DNA from: Pseudomonadota bacterium
GTDB taxonomy: Bacteria > Desulfobacterota > WTBG01 > JAPLJA01
Length of the DNA stretch: 64,000 nucleotides
Assembly: GCA_026388815.1 (NCBI GenBank)
Contig: JAPLJA010000080.1
Coordinates: forward strand, 1,838 to 65,837
Direction of reading: 5' to 3'
Numbering within the stretch: the first letter of the stretch is position 1; each line of letters opens with the position of its first letter. The notes under the pieces are model-generated. The model saw nothing but the letters and a program-made list of their open reading frames with translations. It had not been told where the DNA came from and did not search any database. The translations under genes and the position numbers were made by a program. This document shows positions 32,026 through 53,730 of the stretch, one piece after another.

Positions 32026-33417
32026 ATGAAAAAGATTCTCTGTTTGACCGTGACTTTGATGGTTCTTATGACAGGCCTTGCCCACGCCGGCACCGTCAAT
32101 CTGCCTCGAACAGGCCAGACGAAATGCTATGACACATCCGGTAATAAGATTACCTGTGCAGGCACAGGCCAGGACGGAGACATTCAGGCTGGGGTGGCTT
32201 GGCCAGAGCCGAGGTTTACAGATAATGGCGATGGAAGAATGACAGATAACCTGACAGGACTTATGTGGACAAAAGATGCTAACTTGCCTGGAGGCACAAA
32301 GATATGGCAAGAGACTCTCGATTACTGTAACAATTTAACTTTAGGTGGGTACTCAGACTGGCGTCTCCCTAACATAAATGAACTGGAAAGCCTGGTCAAT
32401 GGCGCCGAATCCAATACCACCACCTGGCTGAATACCCAGGGCTTCACCAATGTGCAGGCCGACGGCTACTGGTCCTCTACGAGCTGCGCCGGCCTCCCGG
32501 ACCTCGCGTGGGTCGTCCATATGTGGTATGGCCTCGTGGTCACCAATGTGTGTTATTCCGGCGTGTGCTACGGCAGTAAGTCCGACGACTACTACGTTTG
32601 GCCGGTGCGTAGCGGACAGGTTGGGTCATTGGAGAATTCGGTAATTTCACTTCCCCAGACCGGCCAGACAAAGTGTTTTGGCACATATGGCAATGAGATT
32701 CCCTGTTCAGGCACAGGACAGGATGGTGAAATCCAGGCCGGAGTTGGCTGGCCCAACCCGAGGTTTACCGACCATGGAGATACCGTAACTGACAATCTAA
32801 CAGGGCTCATGTGGACAAAGAATGCCGGTCTGCCCGGTGTCCAAGAAACATGGCAACAGGCACTCAACTATGTGAAAGGAATGAATTCAGGCACCTATCA
32901 AAGCTATGGCTATACCGACTGGCGCCTGCCTAACCGGAAAGAACTGCACAGCTTAACTGACTACTCACAGCATGGTCCAGCACTGCCCTCATATCACCCT
33001 TTCCCCAATGCCAACAGAGACTGGTCTTCTACTACCTTCGCCTACGACCCGGGCTACGCGTGGATCGTCGATATGTGGGATGGCATCGTGTGCGATAGCA
33101 CTAAGTCCGTCAGCTTCTACTACGTTTGGCCTGTTCGTGGTGGACAGTCTGGGCCATTAGATCATTGGGTCATTTCCGGCGCCATCATGCATAGGGGGTC
33201 TGGCTTGCAGAATGTTACTATGACCTTAAGTGGGGATGCCTCAATGACCACATCAACAAGGGCAGATGGTACCTACTCCTTTACGGATCTCTCCAATGGC
33301 ACCTATGTCATAACCCCCAGCAAGAGTGGCTATAAGTTCTGGCCCAAAAGCAGATCTATTACAATAAACGATTCAGACGTGTCCGAACAAAACTTTAGGG
33401 GGATAAAAATGCGGTAA
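32026..33417 (+). CDS. Secreted protein with two DUF1566 (Lcl C-terminal-like) domains and a CarboxypepD_reg-like beta-sandwich
   Basis: Signal peptide MKKILCLTVTLMVLMTGLAHA. The block LPxTGQTKC..GTGQDG.IQAGV.WP.PRFTD...DNLTGLMWTK...DWRLPN..EL.SL...YWSSTS...YVWPVR.GQ occurs twice. Tail GTYSFTDLSNGTYVITPSKSGYKF. Confidence 0.8.
   Translation: MKKILCLTVTLMVLMTGLAHAGTVNLPRTGQTKCYDTSGNKITCAGTGQDGDIQAGVAWPEPRFTDNGDGRMTDNLTGLMWTKDANLPGGTKIWQETLDYCNNLTLGGYSDWRLPNINELESLVNGAESNTTTWLNTQGFTNVQADGYWSSTSCAGLPDLAWVVHMWYGLVVTNVCYSGVCYGSKSDDYYVWPVRSGQVGSLENSVISLPQTGQTKCFGTYGNEIPCSGTGQDGEIQAGVGWPNPRFTDHGDTVTDNLTGLMWTKNAGLPGVQETWQQALNYVKGMNSGTYQSYGYTDWRLPNRKELHSLTDYSQHGPALPSYHPFPNANRDWSSTTFAYDPGYAWIVDMWDGIVCDSTKSVSFYYVWPVRGGQSGPLDHWVISGAIMHRGSGLQNVTMTLSGDASMTTSTRADGTYSFTDLSNGTYVITPSKSGYKFWPKSRSITINDSDVSEQNFRGIKMR
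32448..32616 (+). other. DGR variable-region-like segment VR3 (remote, with a 24-nt insertion relative to the TR)
   Basis: Aligns to the TR coding strand, with most differences at TR adenines (AACAAT->GACGGC, AGCAACGCCAACAAC->AGCTGCGCCGGCCTC). There are also several non-A changes and a diverged 3' end. Confidence 0.55.
33007..33144 (+). other. DGR variable-region-like segment VR4 (remote)
   Basis: TGGTCTTCTAC..GCGTGGATCGTCGATATGTGGGATGGCATCGTG..TACGTTTGGCCTGTTCG aligns to the TR. Differences are mainly at TR adenines. The 3' end GTTCGTGGTGGA differs from the TR's GTTCGCGCGGGA. Confidence 0.55.
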
Positions 33418-33502: not shown

Positions 33503-33796
33503 TTACTTGAATTTCTTCAAATATTTTTCGCTATCCTTCTTATGAGTGATGGCCAGAATTACAATCTCTTTCCCAGCGATTCTGTAGTAAACCCTGAAAT
33601 CCCCGCTGCGCAACCGATAGAGAGGGGGAATGAAGCCGGTAAGTTTCTTTATTCGGGTCTTGCCCAAAGGGAAGGGTGACTGCTCTAAATAGGTCTTAAT
33701 ATCTCGAGCGAGCTGAAGGCTTTCATCAACTTCAAAGCGTTCTATCTCATGCTGGGCAGCAGGGGTGAAAATAATCTTAAATCTTTTTTCTCCCAC
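33503..33796 (-). CDS. RelE/ParE-family type II toxin
   Basis: ..LYRLRSGDFRVYYRIAGKEIVILAITHKKDSEK.. is the typical RelE/ParE C-terminal pattern. It overlaps the upstream antitoxin by 20 nt. Confidence 0.75.
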   Translation of the reverse strand: MGEKRFKIIFTPAAQHEIERFEVDESLQLARDIKTYLEQSPFPLGKTRIKKLTGFIPPLYRLRSGDFRVYYRIAGKEIVILAITHKKDSEKYLKKFK

Positions 33797-34052
33797 GGCG
33801 CTTTTCCAGTTTCCTGATCATATCATCGACATTGATACCACCACCGGCCTTATATTCCGCAAATGCCTCCGCGATTCTGGTCTTGAATGCGGGGTCATTC
33901 TCCATGAGGTAATCCGCAAGATCGTCCTCTGTGATATGGTGGAGTATTGCCGTGGGCTTGCCGTAGGCGGTTATGATGATATCCTCCTTTTCAGAATCTT
34001 TAAGGATATCCATGGTACTGTGTTTCAGTTCCTTGACACCTGCAAAGCGCAT
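33777..34052 (-). CDS. Type II antitoxin (Phd/YefM-like)
   Basis: MRFAGVKELKHSTMDILKDSEKEDIIITAYGKPTAIL.. Small size and position upstream of the toxin. Confidence 0.6.
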   Translation of the reverse strand: MRFAGVKELKHSTMDILKDSEKEDIIITAYGKPTAILHHITEDDLADYLMENDPAFKTRIAEAFAEYKAGGGINVDDMIRKLEKRRGRKKI

Positions 34053-46909: not shown

Positions 46910-49900
46910 TTACCTCAAACTGTGAAATACACGTGGAGCAGCTGATACCGGGCCATGTAATGTTGAAGTACCATTGAGGTCGATGTCTTCAAGTTTGTAG
47001 TAATAGGTCTTACGGTTCTGAACATTCTCATCAACAAACTGATATGTCGCTCCCTGCGTGGCAGATCCCTGGGCTGGAATCAATGAGGAATTGATCTTTA
47101 CGTATTCACCATTTTCTGATTCAGCGCGGTAGAGGTTAAAACCTGCATTGTCGATTTCAGAGGCGGTAGTCCATTTGAGAATGATTGCTCGGTCAGAGGG
47201 GGTGGTGGTGAAGGAGGAAAGGGTGATTAACGTCGGTTCACACGCATCACCTATCCCATCGCCATCTGAATCCTGTTGACCGGGGTTAGAAATGTTGGGG
47301 CAGTTGTCAACTATATCTGCTATCCCATCGCCATCGGAATCCATTAAGGCAATAAAATCCATACCGGTTACATCTGCATCAATAACATCAATTGTCTGGC
47401 TCAGCGGATCAAAGGCATAACCGGAAAGGGATGGTGTAATGGTGTATGAACCGTTGAACACTCCGGGGAAAATGTAATTCCCGGCAGAATCGGTTGTGGT
47501 GGTCATTGAGAAGGTACCGGATAGAGCCAGGGTAATACCTTCCAGTACATCCCCCGTTACCGTGCCAGATAGTGAGTAGGTAGGAACAGAATCAGGATCA
47601 AGAGGGTCAGAGCCTCTCTGAATCTCAATATAATCGCTGTAACTGTCTTCGTCGGTATCGTTCAGTAATGGGCTCGTCCCTCGAATATACTCTTCACCGT
47701 CGTTGAGACCATCACTATCTGTATCCGGGTTGCTCAAGTCAGTCCCTAAAGATGTTTCCTGGACATCAGTGAGCCCGTCATGATCACGGTCGTCGTTGGT
47801 TGCAAAGTTAGAGAGGAAGCTTTCTGTCCCGTCTGACATCACTGCTGAAACAGCATATACCCTGGTTGTAACTGATGAATTTTCTACCCAAGGGTGGTTG
47901 GTATAAAAGGAACTGACGGTTGAGGTTCCCAGTTGGGAGGGGTATGGCTCATCTATTTGTTTTGAGTAGATTATGTATCCTGTTGCCTCAGGATATGCGC
48001 TTGCATCCCAGGTGAGCTTTGTTATTAGGCCGCCTGAATCCAGGGGATCTGCCTGAAGTCCAGTGGGGGGAGAGGGTACATTTACCGTAATCCTGTCATC
48101 CGATGTTGAGTCTACGGTGAAAGAAATGTTGGTAGTAGTAGCGTGGTTAAAGCCCCAGTATTCCCTGTTCACAGCCTTTTCTGAGTCAGAATAGCTCAAG
48201 GCCAAGCGATAATCTTCTTGATAGGCGTCTTTAAGATAGAGGGTGTACAGACCATCAGCCGTATTTTTGATGCTTATTGTTCCACCGTCCTTATCTATTG
48301 AGATTATACTATCGGGGATTTCATCTTCCCGTATATCAGTTGCTGGATTAATGCCACTTTTTCTACCGAGAGGATCTATGAGGTAGGGCTGGACCCGTCC
48401 TCGCACCGAGATTGTCATCCTAGGCGTGTCAGGAGCACCGCCAGACAAGAGATAATTACTCGAACCTGTCATAAGCGGAGAAGATGCTGGTGTTTTACCT
48501 GTAATAAACTCTACAATCTCATTACTGTATGTAGTGATTAATTCGCTGTGCTTACCCTCCTTCTCATCAACAGAGTCCATCCCTGAGATGATGGCGCTGT
48601 TTTTAAGGACAGTCCCATCACCTTCCCCTGTTTTTGTTGGATCACCTTTTGGTACGCCATCCTTATATAGGTTATTTGGCTTCCCAACATCAATTACCTC
48701 AATAGTATTTTTATTTATCCCTGCAAATATTTTAACTTCCTTGACTGAGAGGGCAAGATTCCTATTCAATGTAATGAGACTCTTATTGTAACTTTCAAGG
48801 TCACCAATGCTTAATAATGGCGTGCATTCTGAACCGAGCGGAGAGAAAAAGCATTGCCTTAAAAACGGATAGGTTGGCAAAAGCTCTCTTACCGATTTTA
48901 CGTGTTCATGCACGAAATCTCTTATCAGAATATTATTTGGTTTTATAACTACGGCGGGGGTGCTCTGGGCATGTGTTTCAAAGTTTGAAAACGCCCTTTT
49001 ATTCATTTCCTTATAGATATTCTCCAAAACATTCGTATATAAATTAATGAAAAAATCACTCAATCCATCATTCAAGTTGTCAGCCAGTTTTGGGTCCCCG
49101 CCTTCCCAGATGTAGTAGGCATTGGCAGCCCCCTGGTTTGGTGTGCCCACCATGGCAAACCTGTCAATGTCTTTCTGGTAGTCACTGCTCTGAATGTAGG
49201 ATCTCACCACAAGCCCGCCCATGCTGTGGGCAATGATGTGTACCTTGTCAGTACCAGCGATATCTTGGGCTCTGTCAATCCATCGCTTGAGGTAATTTTT
49301 AGCACAATCGTCTATTTCTAATCTCCAGTCATAGGGCACAGGGAAAATGTTGCACCCAACCTCATAATTGGGGTCTACGGATTTAATCTTTTCCGCCAGC
49401 AGTTTCCAGCCTGGCTTGCTGTCAGGTTGGCCGGAGTTATAGTCAAACAATCCGTTAAATACTTTATCTCCAGATTTTCTCCATCTTATGTCATACCATG
49501 GAGGTGAATCGGCAGGCAGAGTGGGATAGTTTTGGTCTGCTGTGGTGGAACCCATAATACCCGGTACAAGCAATATAGGGGTTAAGCCTGTAGGATTACA
49601 TGCGCTTCCCAGTATAACCAAATCCTGGCCGACACACTGATTGCTTGGGAGACATAGTGGAAATGTTTCGCTTACTCTGCTCTCTTTTACTGCCCAGAGA
49701 GAATAGTATCCGGATGAAACAGGTGGAAACTGGTAGTTGCCATTGCTGTTTGTGGTTGTCGAAAGTTGATTGGTCCCCCCATCATCCAACCATACGGTGG
49801 CACCTTCTATTCTATTTCCGCTGCCATCTCTCACGGTTCCGCCCAGAGAGGAAAGATTTGAAATTCCTCCTGTTATGCTAAAGGAGTTACTCTCCCCTGA

Positions 49901-50965
49901 TTTACCACCACCATTTGTTCTGATGTTTATACTGTTTCCGGGACTATCGAGCTTTACAGAAAGCGTAGCAGTGCCATTAGTAAAGTAAGCTTTCATCGGG
50001 CTTACCATACCGATTGTGGCACTCAAAATAGCTTCCCCGTTAAATTGTGTTGCTGTATCGCCATTCCTATCCTTTGCATTAATGGTGATCACAAAGGGTA
50101 CGTTAACAGTCTGGGGGGATGTGATGGAAGAAAAAGAAAAATGATCAAGCAAACCATAGGCCGTAAAATCCTGCCCAGTTACATTGCTTCCTGAGATGTT
50201 TACAATTCTTGATGGAGGATTAAAGGTATATCCCGTTAGACTGGGCGTTATAGTGTATGTGCCGTCGGCAAGGTCAGTGAAAGAGTACGTTCCATCAGAG
50301 ACCGTTGTAGTGGTTTTTGAGACCGTTCCAGACAAGGTCACAGTGACACCGGCCAGGCCGGAGCCGTTGTAGGTAACGCTGCCGGAAATAACCAAATTAC
50401 CAAATGACCCAGACTGTCCCGCGCGAACAGGCCAGACGTAGTAGTAGTAGCCGGACTTATTGCTGTTGTGCACGTAGCCAAAACACATACTGACGATCCA
50501 CGCGTAGCCCGGGTTGCTGGCGTAGCTCGTAGAAGACCAGTAATAGCCGGCCTGCACATTGGTAAAGGGATGCCCGGCGGGTAAGGCTGGCGAGTATTGT
50601 GAAAAGTCAGTCAGGCTGTGTATTTCCTTCAGGTTGGGAAGACGCCAGTCATGATAGCCGTAATTGGGATAGGTTCCGGCATTCATCCCTGCCACATAAT
50701 TCAGCGCTTGCTGCCAGTTCATGTATCCATTAGGAAGATTTGCATTCTTTGTCCACATCAGGCCGGTGAGATTATCGGTTGCCGTGCCATTTCCATGATC
50801 GGCAAACCGTGGCACAGGCCAGGCAACACCTCTTTCCAGGTCGCCGTCATCGCCGCTGTAATAACTCGCTTTCTGCCCTGTTTCCCATATCGGCGCCGGT
50901 TGGCAAAATGCCGCGCTCGCCAAAGCCGTAACCAAAATCACAACAAAACATATTATCTTTTTCAT
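46910..50965 (-). CDS. 1351-aa secreted multidomain protein (DGR target 2): N-terminal DUF1566 domain carrying VR2, beta-sandwich/Ig-like domains, alpha/beta-hydrolase (lipase-like), thrombospondin-type-3-like Ca-binding repeats, FN3-like C-terminus
   Basis: Start at internal MKKIICFVVILVTALASAAF (ATG 50965, GGAGGG upstream, 2 nt after the RT stop). GxSxG nucleophile elbow in HIIAHSMGGLVV (Ser codon 49223-49225). DTDSDGLNDGEE and DSDGDGIADIVDNCPNISNPGQQDSDGDGIGDAC repeats. Confidence 0.85.
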   Translation of the reverse strand: MKKIICFVVILVTALASAAFCQPAPIWETGQKASYYSGDDGDLERGVAWPVPRFADHGNGTATDNLTGLMWTKNANLPNGYMNWQQALNYVAGMNAGTYPNYGYHDWRLPNLKEIHSLTDFSQYSPALPAGHPFTNVQAGYYWSSTSYASNPGYAWIVSMCFGYVHNSNKSGYYYYVWPVRAGQSGSFGNLVISGSVTYNGSGLAGVTVTLSGTVSKTTTTVSDGTYSFTDLADGTYTITPSLTGYTFNPPSRIVNISGSNVTGQDFTAYGLLDHFSFSSITSPQTVNVPFVITINAKDRNGDTATQFNGEAILSATIGMVSPMKAYFTNGTATLSVKLDSPGNSINIRTNGGGKSGESNSFSITGGISNLSSLGGTVRDGSGNRIEGATVWLDDGGTNQLSTTTNSNGNYQFPPVSSGYYSLWAVKESRVSETFPLCLPSNQCVGQDLVILGSACNPTGLTPILLVPGIMGSTTADQNYPTLPADSPPWYDIRWRKSGDKVFNGLFDYNSGQPDSKPGWKLLAEKIKSVDPNYEVGCNIFPVPYDWRLEIDDCAKNYLKRWIDRAQDIAGTDKVHIIAHSMGGLVVRSYIQSSDYQKDIDRFAMVGTPNQGAANAYYIWEGGDPKLADNLNDGLSDFFINLYTNVLENIYKEMNKRAFSNFETHAQSTPAVVIKPNNILIRDFVHEHVKSVRELLPTYPFLRQCFFSPLGSECTPLLSIGDLESYNKSLITLNRNLALSVKEVKIFAGINKNTIEVIDVGKPNNLYKDGVPKGDPTKTGEGDGTVLKNSAIISGMDSVDEKEGKHSELITTYSNEIVEFITGKTPASSPLMTGSSNYLLSGGAPDTPRMTISVRGRVQPYLIDPLGRKSGINPATDIREDEIPDSIISIDKDGGTISIKNTADGLYTLYLKDAYQEDYRLALSYSDSEKAVNREYWGFNHATTTNISFTVDSTSDDRITVNVPSPPTGLQADPLDSGGLITKLTWDASAYPEATGYIIYSKQIDEPYPSQLGTSTVSSFYTNHPWVENSSVTTRVYAVSAVMSDGTESFLSNFATNDDRDHDGLTDVQETSLGTDLSNPDTDSDGLNDGEEYIRGTSPLLNDTDEDSYSDYIEIQRGSDPLDPDSVPTYSLSGTVTGDVLEGITLALSGTFSMTTTTDSAGNYIFPGVFNGSYTITPSLSGYAFDPLSQTIDVIDADVTGMDFIALMDSDGDGIADIVDNCPNISNPGQQDSDGDGIGDACEPTLITLSSFTTTPSDRAIILKWTTASEIDNAGFNLYRAESENGEYVKINSSLIPAQGSATQGATYQFVDENVQNRKTYYYKLEDIDLNGTSTLHGPVSAAPRVFHSLR
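50417..50562 (-). other. DGR variable region VR2
   Basis: Hand alignment to the TR over 146 nt gives 19 differences at TR adenines and 1 non-adenine difference. The 3' end GTTCGCGCGGGA is identical to the TR. Confidence 0.85.
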
Positions 50966-50967
50966 CG

Positions 50968-52602
50968 TTAGCCCTCCTGGGGTATCAGTTTCGCTACCGG
51001 CAGGCGTTCCTTTATCCTGCCCAGGTATCTTCCTGTCTCCTTGATGATTACAACCGGTAGACCTTTTCTCAGCAGTCTTCCCGCATACTCCTTTTCGAGC
51101 CTTACCGGAAAACCGTATGTGACCGGTCTCGTTCTCGCGGTAATGCTCCGAAGTCCGAGGATGTTTTGCACCTCCGCTTTTATTTCGGAGTAGCATTCAA
51201 AAAAACACCCCACCTGGAAGAACATGAACATGCCCTTGAACATGTTTGCATAATGTAAATACTGGCTTTTTACAGAAGAAAAGAGGTGTGTTGGTTTTAT
51301 GGCATAATTGCGGGGAATCACTTTATCGTTGTCAAAATGGAAATATTCTCTTAAAAATGAATATCTTTGTATGATGGTCTGTTTAAGCCGGTATGCATCC
51401 GCCCACTTGAGATGGCCGAAATACGAGGCGATGACAGAACGGAGCCGGTTGATAAGTTCGTAGTCATACCTGATAATGCGTAACCCGTCATGCTCCGAGA
51501 TCAACCGCTGTTGAAACCATTCTAATTTTTCCCTCAGGTTATTCACCACCCTCCTCCGTACCAGCAGGTAATCTTCCCGGATGATATAGCCTAAAAAATC
51601 TATGCCGTTTGACACCGGCAGGATTCTTCCGTGCTTTTCGTTGAGTGATAGGTTGAGCTGGCGTGACACAAACCCGCTGATTTTTTCCTTTGCTTCTGTT
51701 AGAAATTCCGGTGATTCATGGAGGATGACAAAATCGTCACAGTACCGTACATAGTACCGGCATTTCAAGGTATGCTTTACAAACTGATCAAGTGCGTTGA
51801 GATAGACGTTGGCGAAGAACTGACTGGTGAGGTTGCCGATAGGCAGACCTCTGTTCTCCGGCGCGCTGAACAAGCTCTTCTGAACGGGAATCCGTTCACG
51901 CAAGTGCTTCTTTCCTTTGATGATGCAATGATCCGTGGGACGATGGAATATGATGGTGTGGGCAAACGAGCGCATCTGTTCATCCCCTACCTTCTTTTCA
52001 ACGATCCGATAAAGGATCTCTTTGTCAATTGACATGAAAAAATTCTTAATATCCAGATGCATGAAATAGAGCCTTTTTCTGCCGTTCCGGCTGCCTTGCC
52101 GTATGAAGCCGCGCAAACGTTCCACTGCCTTGTGTAACCCTTTATCCTTCCGGCATGCATAGGAGTCGTAGATAAAAACAGGTTCAAAGATGGATTCCAG
52201 TCTTTCGACCAGGATGTGGTGAACGACCCTGTCCCTGAAATCGGCGGCTATAATCTCTCTCATCTTCGGTCGTTCAACCATGAAGCAGACAGAACGGGTG
52301 GGCTGATAGGTTCCCTGTTGGAGCTCTTCTGAAAGGTTTAAGAGATTCTCTTCGGCGTTTATCTCAAATTTCAGGCAATTGATGGTGTTCCGTTTATGTT
52401 TCCTGCATGTGAGATAATTCCGGTACAGATTTTCAAAAGAGAAGAGGGGAGGCAGCCACTCTCCCGCGCGAACAGGCCAGACGTAGTTGTTGTTGTTGGA
52501 CTTATTGTTGTTGTTCACGTTGCCATTCCACATATTGACGATCCACGCGTTGTCCGGGTTGTTGGCGTTGCTCGTAGAAGACCAGTAATTGTTGGCCTGC
52601 AC
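50968..52602 (-). CDS. DGR reverse transcriptase with C-terminal MutS-domain-I-like extension (the ORF as drawn includes the TR at its 5' end)
   Basis: LPIGNLTSQFFANVYL (DGR-specific I/LGxxxSQ), RYCDDFVIL (YxDD), N-terminal LFSFENLYRNYLTCRKHKRN. The last ~100 aa, ..FFQVGCFFECY..GLR...R......GFP......Y...LL.KG..V, resemble MutS domain I. Confidence 0.9.
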   Translation of the reverse strand: MQANNYWSSTSNANNPDNAWIVNMWNGNVNNNNKSNNNNYVWPVRAGEWLPPLFSFENLYRNYLTCRKHKRNTINCLKFEINAEENLLNLSEELQQGTYQPTRSVCFMVERPKMREIIAADFRDRVVHHILVERLESIFEPVFIYDSYACRKDKGLHKAVERLRGFIRQGSRNGRKRLYFMHLDIKNFFMSIDKEILYRIVEKKVGDEQMRSFAHTIIFHRPTDHCIIKGKKHLRERIPVQKSLFSAPENRGLPIGNLTSQFFANVYLNALDQFVKHTLKCRYYVRYCDDFVILHESPEFLTEAKEKISGFVSRQLNLSLNEKHGRILPVSNGIDFLGYIIREDYLLVRRRVVNNLREKLEWFQQRLISEHDGLRIIRYDYELINRLRSVIASYFGHLKWADAYRLKQTIIQRYSFLREYFHFDNDKVIPRNYAIKPTHLFSSVKSQYLHYANMFKGMFMFFQVGCFFECYSEIKAEVQNILGLRSITARTRPVTYGFPVRLEKEYAGRLLRKGLPVVIIKETGRYLGRIKERLPVAKLIPQEG

Positions 52603-52607
52603 ATTTG
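52462..52607 (-). other. DGR template region (TR)
   Basis: The coding strand encodes NVQANNYWSSTSNANNPDNAWIVNMWNGNVNNNNKSNNNNYVWPVRAG with 17 AAY (Asn) codons. It is about 86% identical to VR1 and VR2, with mismatches confined to its adenines. Confidence 0.9.
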
Positions 52608-52755: not shown

Positions 52756-53148
52756 TCATCCACCCTCCTGGTTGTTTCTTATCCAGCCTTCGTTCTGTCT
52801 GCTCATGGAGATTGTTTCTTCGATGGCATGTTGAAAGGAATCAAAGTTTTTAAATGCCTTCACCTCCTTGCATATCCTGAGGGTAACCTTGAGATCTTCT
52901 ATGGTATCCCTGAGTATGGCCAGGGTTGTCTGTTTATCCCGTTCAGAGTTTGCCCTGATAACAAGCCTGACCACCTCACGGGACAGACTCCTCACGTCTG
53001 TTCCCAGTGTATATTTATGATACCGTGAGAATCCTCTCACAATATTTTCAAGGTAGATGGTTAAATCCATAGCCTTCTTGTAGAGGGGAAGATGTTCGTA
53101 CTGTGCCATAAAATCATAAAAAATATTTTCAAATAACCGAATAATCAA
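52756..53148 (-). CDS. avd: DGR accessory variability determinant (Avd, four-helix-bundle family)
   Basis: HLPLYKKAMDLTIYLENIVRGFSRYHKYTLGTDVR...VIRAN... has the Avd-like pattern, and the gene sits between target 1 and the TR. The track start is TTG; an alternative ATG lies at 53109. Confidence 0.75.
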   Translation of the reverse strand: MIIRLFENIFYDFMAQYEHLPLYKKAMDLTIYLENIVRGFSRYHKYTLGTDVRSLSREVVRLVIRANSERDKQTTLAILRDTIEDLKVTLRICKEVKAFKNFDSFQHAIEETISMSRQNEGWIRNNQEGG

Positions 53149-53157
53149 ATAACCTAA

Positions 53158-53730
53158 TCACTGTCCCGCGCGAACAGGCCAGACGTAGTAGCTGCCGTAG
53201 GACTTATAGTTGTAGCCCACGCGGCCATTCCACATACCGACGATCCACGCGTCGTCCGGGTAGAAGGCGTAGCTCGTAGAAGACCAGTAATTGTCGGCCT
53301 GCACATTGGTAAAACCCTGAGAGCTAAGCCAGGTGGCTGAATTAGCTTCTTCTCTATTGATGAGGCTTTCCAGCTCATTCACACTGGGTAAGCGCCAGTC
53401 GGTGTAGCCGCACAGGTTTAGATTGTTACAGTCATCAACGGCCTGATACCAGGTCCTGATGCCATTTGGAAGATTGGCATTCTTAGCCCACATCAGGCCG
53501 GTAAGGGTATCGGTGACGCAGTCACCATTTACCTGAAACCTTGGGCTCGGCGGGGCTACACCAGCCTGAATGGCGCCGTCCTGCCCGGTGCCCGGACAGG
53601 GGATTTGATTTCCGGCTGTGTCATAGCATTTCTTCTGGCCGGTTTTTGGAAGGTTGACGGTGCCGGCAAGGGCAAGACCGGATACGAAGAACAGTAATAT
53701 TACGGTTAAAGAAAGGATTCGGTTTTTCAT
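53158..53730 (-). CDS. DGR target 1: secreted single-domain DUF1566 protein with C-terminal VR1
   Basis: Signal peptide MKNRILSLTVILLFFVSGLALA, then LPKTGQKKCYD..GTGQDGAIQAGV...DTLTGLMWAK..DWRLPSVNELESL...YWSSTSYAFYPDDAWIVGMWNGRVGYNYKSYGSYYVWPVRAGQ*. Confidence 0.85.
   Translation of the reverse strand: MKNRILSLTVILLFFVSGLALAGTVNLPKTGQKKCYDTAGNQIPCPGTGQDGAIQAGVAPPSPRFQVNGDCVTDTLTGLMWAKNANLPNGIRTWYQAVDDCNNLNLCGYTDWRLPSVNELESLINREEANSATWLSSQGFTNVQADNYWSSTSYAFYPDDAWIVGMWNGRVGYNYKSYGSYYVWPVRAGQ
53164..53309 (-). other. DGR variable region VR1
   Basis: Hand alignment to the TR over 146 nt gives 20 differences, every one at a TR adenine (T on the printed strand). Confidence 0.9.

Follow-up and report, generated by a model that had tools for sequence, protein, structure and literature searches.

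Two template-like segments in a remote two-headed lectin gene as probable past targets of a diversity-generating retroelement

Diversity-generating retroelements (DGRs) can act on target genes that lie apart from their own cassette, and such trans-targets were found in 45 of 372 DGRs (PMC5758913). In Treponema denticola, the Legionella clade and Thiohalocapsa PB-PSB1, the trans-target carries a variable repeat (VR) at the end of a C-type-lectin domain, kilobases from the segment that holds avd, the template repeat (TR) and the reverse transcriptase (RT), and shares its TR with targets adjacent to that segment (PMC5758913, PMC10907252). Here we analyzed a 64-kb stretch of contig JAPLJA010000080.1 (64,000 nt, hereafter the window), in which a gene for a two-headed lectin, at 32026 to 33417, has this layout with respect to a DGR cassette 19 kb away. 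The published trans-targets were recognized by a perfect or near-perfect match to the TR, whereas the two VR-like segments of this gene, VR3 and VR4, appear to match TR alleles of sister strains or older ones. As an object, the gene would be ordinary, a trans-target of a Legionella-type DGR.

The system resembles the CLec2, or category 'd', targets (DUF1566, Legionella LdtA type), which likewise combine a C-terminal Lcl_C VR, an AAC-rich TR, secretion, Avd and a MutS_I-like RT tail (PMC5758913). It differs from them in having two heads and in lacking a GC-rich inverted repeat after the VR, the place of which is taken by an AT-rich tandem-octamer element. Target genes with more than one VR per open reading frame (ORF) are also known, including internal VRs whose region resembling the initiation of mutagenic homing (IMH) site also encodes protein. 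Internal VRs have been documented (PMC5758913), and multi-VR targets were reported in 31 DGRs (PMC6642488), in a three-VR CLec1 gene (PMC5758913) and in the DGR 4 target of PB-PSB1 (PMC10907252). Proteins with two Lcl_C domains number in the hundreds in metagenomes, and several of the loci that we fetched have VR-like ends in both domains. An earlier annotation of the window, made from its letters (the first-pass annotation), had called two VRs in one polypeptide uncommon, which these examples contradict. What sets this gene apart from the known multi-VR targets is that its two VRs have different 3' blocks, neither of which fits the local TR. The DGR of ANKO01000117.1 (PMC5758913) and the non-diversified DGR1 target of PB-PSB1 offer a further parallel, as one target of such a multi-target DGR has several non-adenine differences and an in-frame indel, and its other targets have none. 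Those misfits were left unexplained or put down to non-canonical mutagenesis; the ones described here can mostly be tied to another TR allele.

Template-like segments in the remote gene

The product of the remote gene begins with a signal peptide (about residues 1-21), followed by Lcl_C head 1, a linker, Lcl_C head 2 and a beta-sandwich resembling CarboxypepD_reg. Pfam placed Lcl_C (PF07603, formerly DUF1566) on two stretches of the protein (E = 6.6e-59), as expected from the first-pass annotation, with a score of 197.8 bits against a curated cutoff of 34.9, and CarboxypepD_reg at residues 390-457. We used AlphaFold2 to model the protein, obtaining a mean predicted local distance difference test (pLDDT) score of 87.6. 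Low values were confined to the signal peptide, the two linkers and a loop at residues 177-182, the only low-confidence loop inside the lectin heads, which corresponds to an insertion in VR3. Foldseek matched the model to the C-terminal domain of Legionella Lcl (8q4e; template modelling score on the target 0.62, root-mean-square deviation 2.8). The gene lies on the plus strand, opposite in orientation to VR1 and VR2 of the cassette. VR orientation matters for DGR targeting (PMC12875486); GC skew of the window was uninformative about the direction of replication, and we therefore left the orientation of the gene unused. The features on which the comparison rests are as follows.

32026..33417, plus strand: remote target gene, 463 amino acids (ORF and translation)
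32449..32616, plus strand: VR3, the end of head 1, TR positions 1-144
32543..32573, plus strand: 27-nt insertion in VR3, encoding ..TNVCYSGVC.., its placement ambiguous within this span
33010..33144, plus strand: VR4, the end of head 2, TR positions 10-144, with a 6-nt deletion at the 5' edge
52462..52605, minus strand: TR, 144 nt up to GGA, then GAG (CAG in the VRs), with 47 adenines, mostly in AAC codons
53158..53781, minus strand: target 1, a single Lcl_C protein, VR1 at 53164-53307
46910..50965, minus strand: target 2, 1351 amino acids, with an N-terminal Lcl_C domain, VR2 at 50417-50560

In a BLASTN search of the window with the TR, exactly five TR-like segments rose above noise: the TR itself, VR1 (53307..53159), VR2 (50560..50413) and two segments of the remote gene (32449-32609 and 33010-33148), one at the end of each Lcl_C domain. 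The first-pass annotation had proposed both of these alignments; it had also placed the TR at 52462-52607, and our coordinates for the part up to GGA are 52462-52605. Over TR positions 1-149, VR3 is changed at 23 of 46 TR adenines and at 12 of 100 other positions (Fisher p = 1.7e-6), and VR4 at 21 of 47 and 10 of 95, respectively (p = 8.4e-6), which bears out the earlier remark that differences fall mostly on adenines. Differences of an active VR should be confined to TR adenines, and those of VR3 and VR4 are not. Up to the GGA at TR position 144, non-adenine mismatches amount to 0/97 in VR1, 1/97 in VR2, 9/96 in VR3 and 9/92 in VR4, the same division between the two pairs that had been noticed before. 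In VR4 they cluster at both ends, and the centre, about 90 nt long, contains only one.

Neither segment is fully co-linear with the TR, as an active VR would be. VR4 is co-linear over positions 10-144 and lacks 6 nt at its 5' edge. VR3 does exceed the TR by a net 24 nt, but what had been described as a 24-nt insertion resolves in gapped alignments into a 27-nt insertion and a 3-nt deletion in an AAC run. By eye, the insertion looks like extra imperfect, already diverged copies of a GTG-NNC-NNC-NNC-NNT unit. The 3' boundaries of VR3 and VR4 are altered, reading GTGCGTAGCGGA and GTTCGTGGTGGA as against GTTCGCGCGGGA; these and the other strings quoted in the first-pass annotation, the NVCYSGVC insertion among them, are all present. 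In the 21-nt block before GGA(C/G)AG, VR1 and VR2 match the local TR at 21/21 positions, VR3 at 14/21 and VR4 at 17/21. Hence VR3 and VR4 lack the near-identity to the TR 3' end that marks the IMH region of an active VR, while both keep the VR-specific C of GGACAG.

The two heads are paralogs of the adjacent targets: head 1 shares 67% amino-acid identity with target 1, and head 2 shares 63% with target 2 over the N-terminal part of the latter. Inside the VRs, the amino acids of these pairs are no more alike than elsewhere. At third codon positions, in contrast, head 1 and target 1 agree at 36/48 sites (0.75) in VR3 and 65/139 (0.47) outside (p = 7.5e-4), and head 2 and target 2 at 38/45 (0.84) in VR4 and 75/183 (0.41) outside (p = 1.1e-7). 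Outside the VRs, third positions are near saturation between the head and target pairs. Because they are alike only inside the VRs, the VR nucleotides must be much younger than the domains that carry them. High third-position identity is the pattern that overwriting by TR-derived cDNA would be expected to leave, and both VR3 and VR4 show the combination expected of a VR written by a DGR in the past, namely synonymous-site identity above that of the surrounding domain together with adenine-biased differences.

Template alleles of sister strains and the remote locus in relatives

We scanned metagenome contigs with one exact pattern taken from the VR centre and obtained 69 loci; together with a genome scan, these yielded 10 TRs. 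Two pairs of loci, L011 with L051 and L015 with L022, are orthologous cassettes of sister strains, with the gene order and flanking genes of the window. Their nucleotide identity to the window is 84% for the L011 cassette (91% for its flank), 93% for the L015 RT and 80% for L022. The sister TR (L011, L015) differs from the window TR by one base in the first 125 nt and by seven in the last 21 nt before GGAGAG, where it reads GTTTGGCCGGTGCGTAGCGGA and the local TR reads GTCTGGCCTGTTCGCGCGGGA (52462-52482, minus strand). Most of these 3'-block differences are synonymous. The block looks to have been swapped between two old families, a VRSG type and a VRAG/VRGG type, rather than to have changed by stepwise mutation.

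The corresponding block of VR3 is identical to the 3' end of the sister TRs.

32596..32616, plus strand: 3' block of VR3, GTTTGGCCGGTGCGTAGCGGA, identical to the TR 3' end of L011 and L015 and different from the local TR at 7/21 positions

Seven of the nine non-adenine changes of VR3 lie in this block. With the L011 TR as template, its non-adenine mismatches fall to two, and on the partial L015 TR to none (0/62). The 3' boundary of VR3 thus reads as a sister TR 3' end and not as random decay. Among the window and the fetched loci, the GTTTGGCCGGTGCGTAGCGGA-type block occurs 19 times, including the L011 and L015 TRs, and the local block is confined to the TR, VR1 and VR2 of the window. The 3' block differs from cassette to cassette but is the same in the TR and the adjacent VRs of any one of them; actively homed VRs therefore track their own TR.

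VR4 is less easily assigned. Its 3' block is unique among the same loci, and its sequence is a mosaic in which ACTACC (TR positions 33 and 35), GTT and CGT are states of sister-cassette TRs or VRs, CCT and GTT are states of the local TR, and GGT is its own. Another TR allele explains seven of nine non-adenine differences in VR3; the explanation holds only in part for VR4, where four of nine are shared with sister-cassette TRs or VRs. The first-pass annotation had suggested searching the genome for a better-matching TR; among the 10 TRs recovered here, the sister TR of L011 and L015 is a better match for VR3, and none improves on the local TR for VR4.

We also compared the remote locus with its syntenic counterparts. 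L059 and L077 have flanks about 90% identical to those of the window, and apart from a 3-nt insertion in the AAC run, G33T and G35C are the sole changes of their head-1 VR relative to the L011 TR. The orthologs of VR1 (L022) and VR2 (L015), which come from the same sample, Ga0315279, also show G33T and G35C relative to the L011 TR. The changes being common to L022, L015 and L059, the TR of that strain almost certainly carries both, and the remote head-1 VR of L059 then has no non-adenine mismatch to its own inferred TR. Head 2 of L059 and L077 has 5-6 mismatches and a 6-nt insertion.

A third syntenic ortholog, represented by L078 and L079, matches the window at 91-92% in the flanks, at about 93% in the C-terminal domain and at 100% over 36 nt of the inter-head linker. 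Non-adenine mismatches reach 19-23/97 in both of its heads, and this heavy load in both indicates that decay at the remote locus recurs. Between the window and L059 or L078, synonymous sites of the head scaffolds are saturated, whereas identity is about 92% (range 90-93%) in the flanks and the remainder of the gene. The heads thus appear to have been exchanged by recombination with paralogs. Judged from these sequences, the remote locus would have a history both as a trans-target and of going out of date.

Explanations of the misfits

We consider it probable that VR3 and VR4 are genuine past trans-targets that were left behind by a switch of TR allele or by head swapping, and that the remote heads are now frozen. 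The ligand-binding end of each head would once have been written by mutagenic retrohoming in trans, the source being the avd-TR-RT cassette 19 kb away, an ancestor of it or an allele. VR3 would last have been written by a TR with the 3' end still present at the sister orthologous cassette, and would afterwards have gained the 27-nt insertion, the 3-nt deletion and two point changes; VR4 would last have been written by a TR version that is neither local nor sister. This could have come about by two routes. Either the cassette TR acquired a new 3' block in this lineage, which homing passed on to VR1 and VR2 but not to the remote heads, or recombination brought in the heads from a strain that had a different TR allele. 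The VR3 insertion would be erased by any homing event, so its persistence counts for lost homing. The identity of the VR3 block to the sister TR 3' end, together with the fit of the L059 head-1 VR to its inferred TR, favours targets left behind when the template changed. The two heads are now most likely binding heads of fixed specificity.

Several points weigh against this account. The ORF is intact, and VR3 and VR4 keep GGACAG and a recognizable octamer element (described below), so that competence has not obviously been destroyed. The centre of VR4, over about 90 nt and with its single non-adenine mismatch, fits the local TR no worse than VR2 does. The window shows 64 kb of the genome, and the TR catalogue derives from a single exact-pattern scan. 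That L015, L022 and L059 represent one genome was judged from their shared sample and similar identity to the window. Strain data from the sediment runs consist of assembled Logan contigs at 3-10x, and a metagenome contig can be a chimera of strains.

The first-pass annotation had offered two alternatives, former targets or targets of another TR, and these were the right ones to set against each other; the sister-TR match favours the former. We regard it as unlikely that VR3, and perhaps VR4, is still being targeted by at least one further TR elsewhere in the genome, for instance by a second DGR with a GTTTGGCCGGTGCGTAGCGGA-type TR. In favour of this, the 21/21 match of the VR3 block is to a TR type common in these sediments, both segments have kept the IMH-like GGACAG and the octamer element, genomes with several DGR loci and TRs that act in trans are known (PMC10907252, PMC5758913), and heads 1 and 2 carry different 3' types both in the window and in L059. 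That TR type, however, sits at the orthologous cassette of sister strains, which makes a second locus unneeded, and even against it VR3 has two indels and two non-adenine changes. Given the many non-adenine positions at which VR3 and VR4 disagree, one extra TR could not serve both segments, and, as noted above, 0/10 recovered TRs improve on the local one for VR4. In the sediment runs, X2 holds the strain, including the VR3 3' block joined to its unique downstream flank, and its only TR-type contig is the window's own, unbranched over 754 nt at 8.3x. A second TR with the same centre would be expected to break this contig, and no GTTTGGCCGGTGCGTAGCGGA-type TR contig was present in X2, although sensitivity there is weak, since a short sister-type VR2 contig is present without its TR. 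In run X1 there is a further TR contig, of sister type and at 5.1x, as would fit the co-occurrence of a sister strain. Among the assembled contigs of X1, VR1 is covered by one unbroken contig of identical sequence, as is VR4, and VR2 and VR3 are in fragments. In runs X8-X11 the housekeeping flank is present and the remote gene is not.

A further explanation, also improbable in our judgment, is that the local TR still edits VR3 and VR4 inefficiently, the misfits arising from non-canonical mutagenesis or from partial, patchy integration of cDNA. Non-A-to-N differences occur in 23% of DGRs, and a target can have as many as 11; indels that keep the frame are found opposite AAC runs, often in only one of several targets; and the 5' boundary of transfer is known to vary (all PMC5758913). 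The well-fitting centre of VR4 could be read in the same way. Against this, exact states of other TR alleles, as opposed to random errors, account for seven of the nine changes in VR3 and four of the nine in VR4 (ACTACC, GTT and CGT). In every cassette examined, the entire 3' block is common to the TR and its active VRs, and the VR3 insertion has survived. It is scarcely credible, finally, that the resemblance to the TR reflects conservation of the Lcl_C family at the protein level, with retrohoming never involved, an outcome that the first-pass annotation had named as a refutation. The C-terminal WPVR(G/A/S)GQ and YWSST motifs are indeed kept across the family. Pure protein-level conservation is nevertheless contradicted by the synonymous third positions, which are far more alike inside the VRs while the amino acids are not, by the concentration of differences on TR adenines, and by the 21/21 nucleotide match of VR3 to the sister TR block, which includes four synonymous sites.

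If VR3 and VR4 are indeed targets left behind, VR misfits, otherwise set aside or put down to sloppy reverse transcription, acquire a meaning. Most of the misfit of VR3 is the signature of another TR allele, which makes the target datable relative to changes of the template, and some cases of 'non-canonical mutagenesis' may be stale VRs. The locus would then show a DGR losing and keeping targets as the 3' end of its TR changes.

Downstream elements, cassette and neighbouring genes

Behind all four VRs, beginning 2-6 nt past GGACAG, lies a 24-nt element of three tandem GGTNATTY octamers. The motif has four matches in the window, against 0.02 expected.

53131-53154, minus strand: octamer element after VR1, past the stop codon of target 1; 20/21
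50386-50409, minus strand: octamer element after VR2; 21/21
32624..32647, plus strand: octamer element after VR3, GGTCATTGGAGAATTCGGTAATTT, two mismatches to the motif; 18/21
33152..33175, plus strand: octamer element after VR4, GGCCATTAGATCATTGGGTCATTT, three mismatches to the motif; 17/21

The element is also present in L002, L004, L008, L011, L016, L021, L022, L037, L056, L058 and L071. The cassettes that carry it include Nitrospirota and Desulfobacteraceae metagenome-assembled genomes (MAGs), with RTs 46-78% identical over the matched span. Other cassettes have it in the non-coding spacer between target 1, whose stop codon it follows, and avd; where the VR is internal, it is translated into a linker of variable sequence (FGNL, LDHS, FVDS and others). 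Retention both in a non-coding spacer and in variable coding linkers points to a signal at the DNA level. The octamer element is accordingly a candidate target-recognition signal in place of the hairpin of the Bordetella phage DGR; we found no description of it in the DGR literature cited here. None of the four VRs has the BPP-1-type GC-rich inverted repeat or cruciform just downstream of the IMH, and no stable hairpin was found within 76 nt after them (z-scores -0.25 to +1.35). The scores behind VR3 and VR4 lie within the range seen after many other VRs, and competence is therefore not settled by the element.

In this DGR clade, two signals at the VR 3' end, a fast-evolving 21-nt block that has to match the TR and a conserved GGTNATTY triplet in place of the hairpin, might together determine which targets are chosen, although we regard this as unlikely. 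Were it so, a switch of the TR block would re-address the element, dropping some heads, such as VR3, and keeping others, and over time different TR alleles could come to own the two heads of a single protein. VR1 and VR2 against VR3 and VR4, with the 21-nt block and the octamer, form a natural test set for the requirements of the VR 3' end. We also considered an 'address code', with a fixed 3' type for each of head 1 and head 2, and gave it low weight, as the pairings vary among other two-headed proteins.

The window contains a complete DGR cassette on the minus strand, in the order target, avd, TR, RT, target. Its RT, Avd, adenine-rich TR and VRs identify it as a DGR. In addition to the TR and targets listed above, it comprises the following genes.

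50968..~52401, minus strand: DGR reverse transcriptase (Pfam RVT_1, E = 1.9e-19)
52756..53148, minus strand: avd, the bAvd-like accessory variability determinant (Pfam bAvd, E = 1.8e-10), with a likely ATG at 53109

The RT ends in a MutS_I-like extension (residues 378-456, about 50968-51270, minus strand; Pfam E = 1.1e-5), a tail reported for only three related RTs (PMC5758913). VR1 and VR2 carry 19 and 18 adenine-position changes, respectively, relative to the TR. After its Lcl_C domain, target 2 continues with beta-sandwich domains (several CarboxypepD_reg), an LCAT/PGAP1-like alpha/beta-hydrolase (lipase-like) domain and TSP3 repeats. The L011 ortholog of target 2 is about 2 kb shorter. At L039:13-1972, a target-1-like and a target-2-like gene lie about 860 nt apart, a distance too short for the 2.3-kb avd-TR-RT segment. 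In a scan of a genome collection, whose representatives do not include the species of the window, the nearest full-length match to the RT was 61% identical and came from a Nitrospirae MAG; two further matches, at 68% and 78%, are partial and cover part of the RT. The host is an uncultivated bacterium from sediment. Its best named RNase G matches are from Deltaproteobacteria and Thermodesulfobacteriota, at 61-68% identity, and exact-protein look-ups of window genes found no record.

Between the remote gene and fmt, two small overlapping ORFs (97 and 91 amino acids) occupy 33503-34052 on the minus strand. This slot differs among strains, and the sister loci hold other small genes there, a HicB-like one in L078. 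No Rfam family was found in 31000-54500. The intergenic segment 34128-34300 contains no tRNA and has no Rfam match. Its contig depth was 1500-3600x in four sediment runs, compared with 0-140x for neighbouring DNA, and it is probably an interspersed repeat common to many members of the community.

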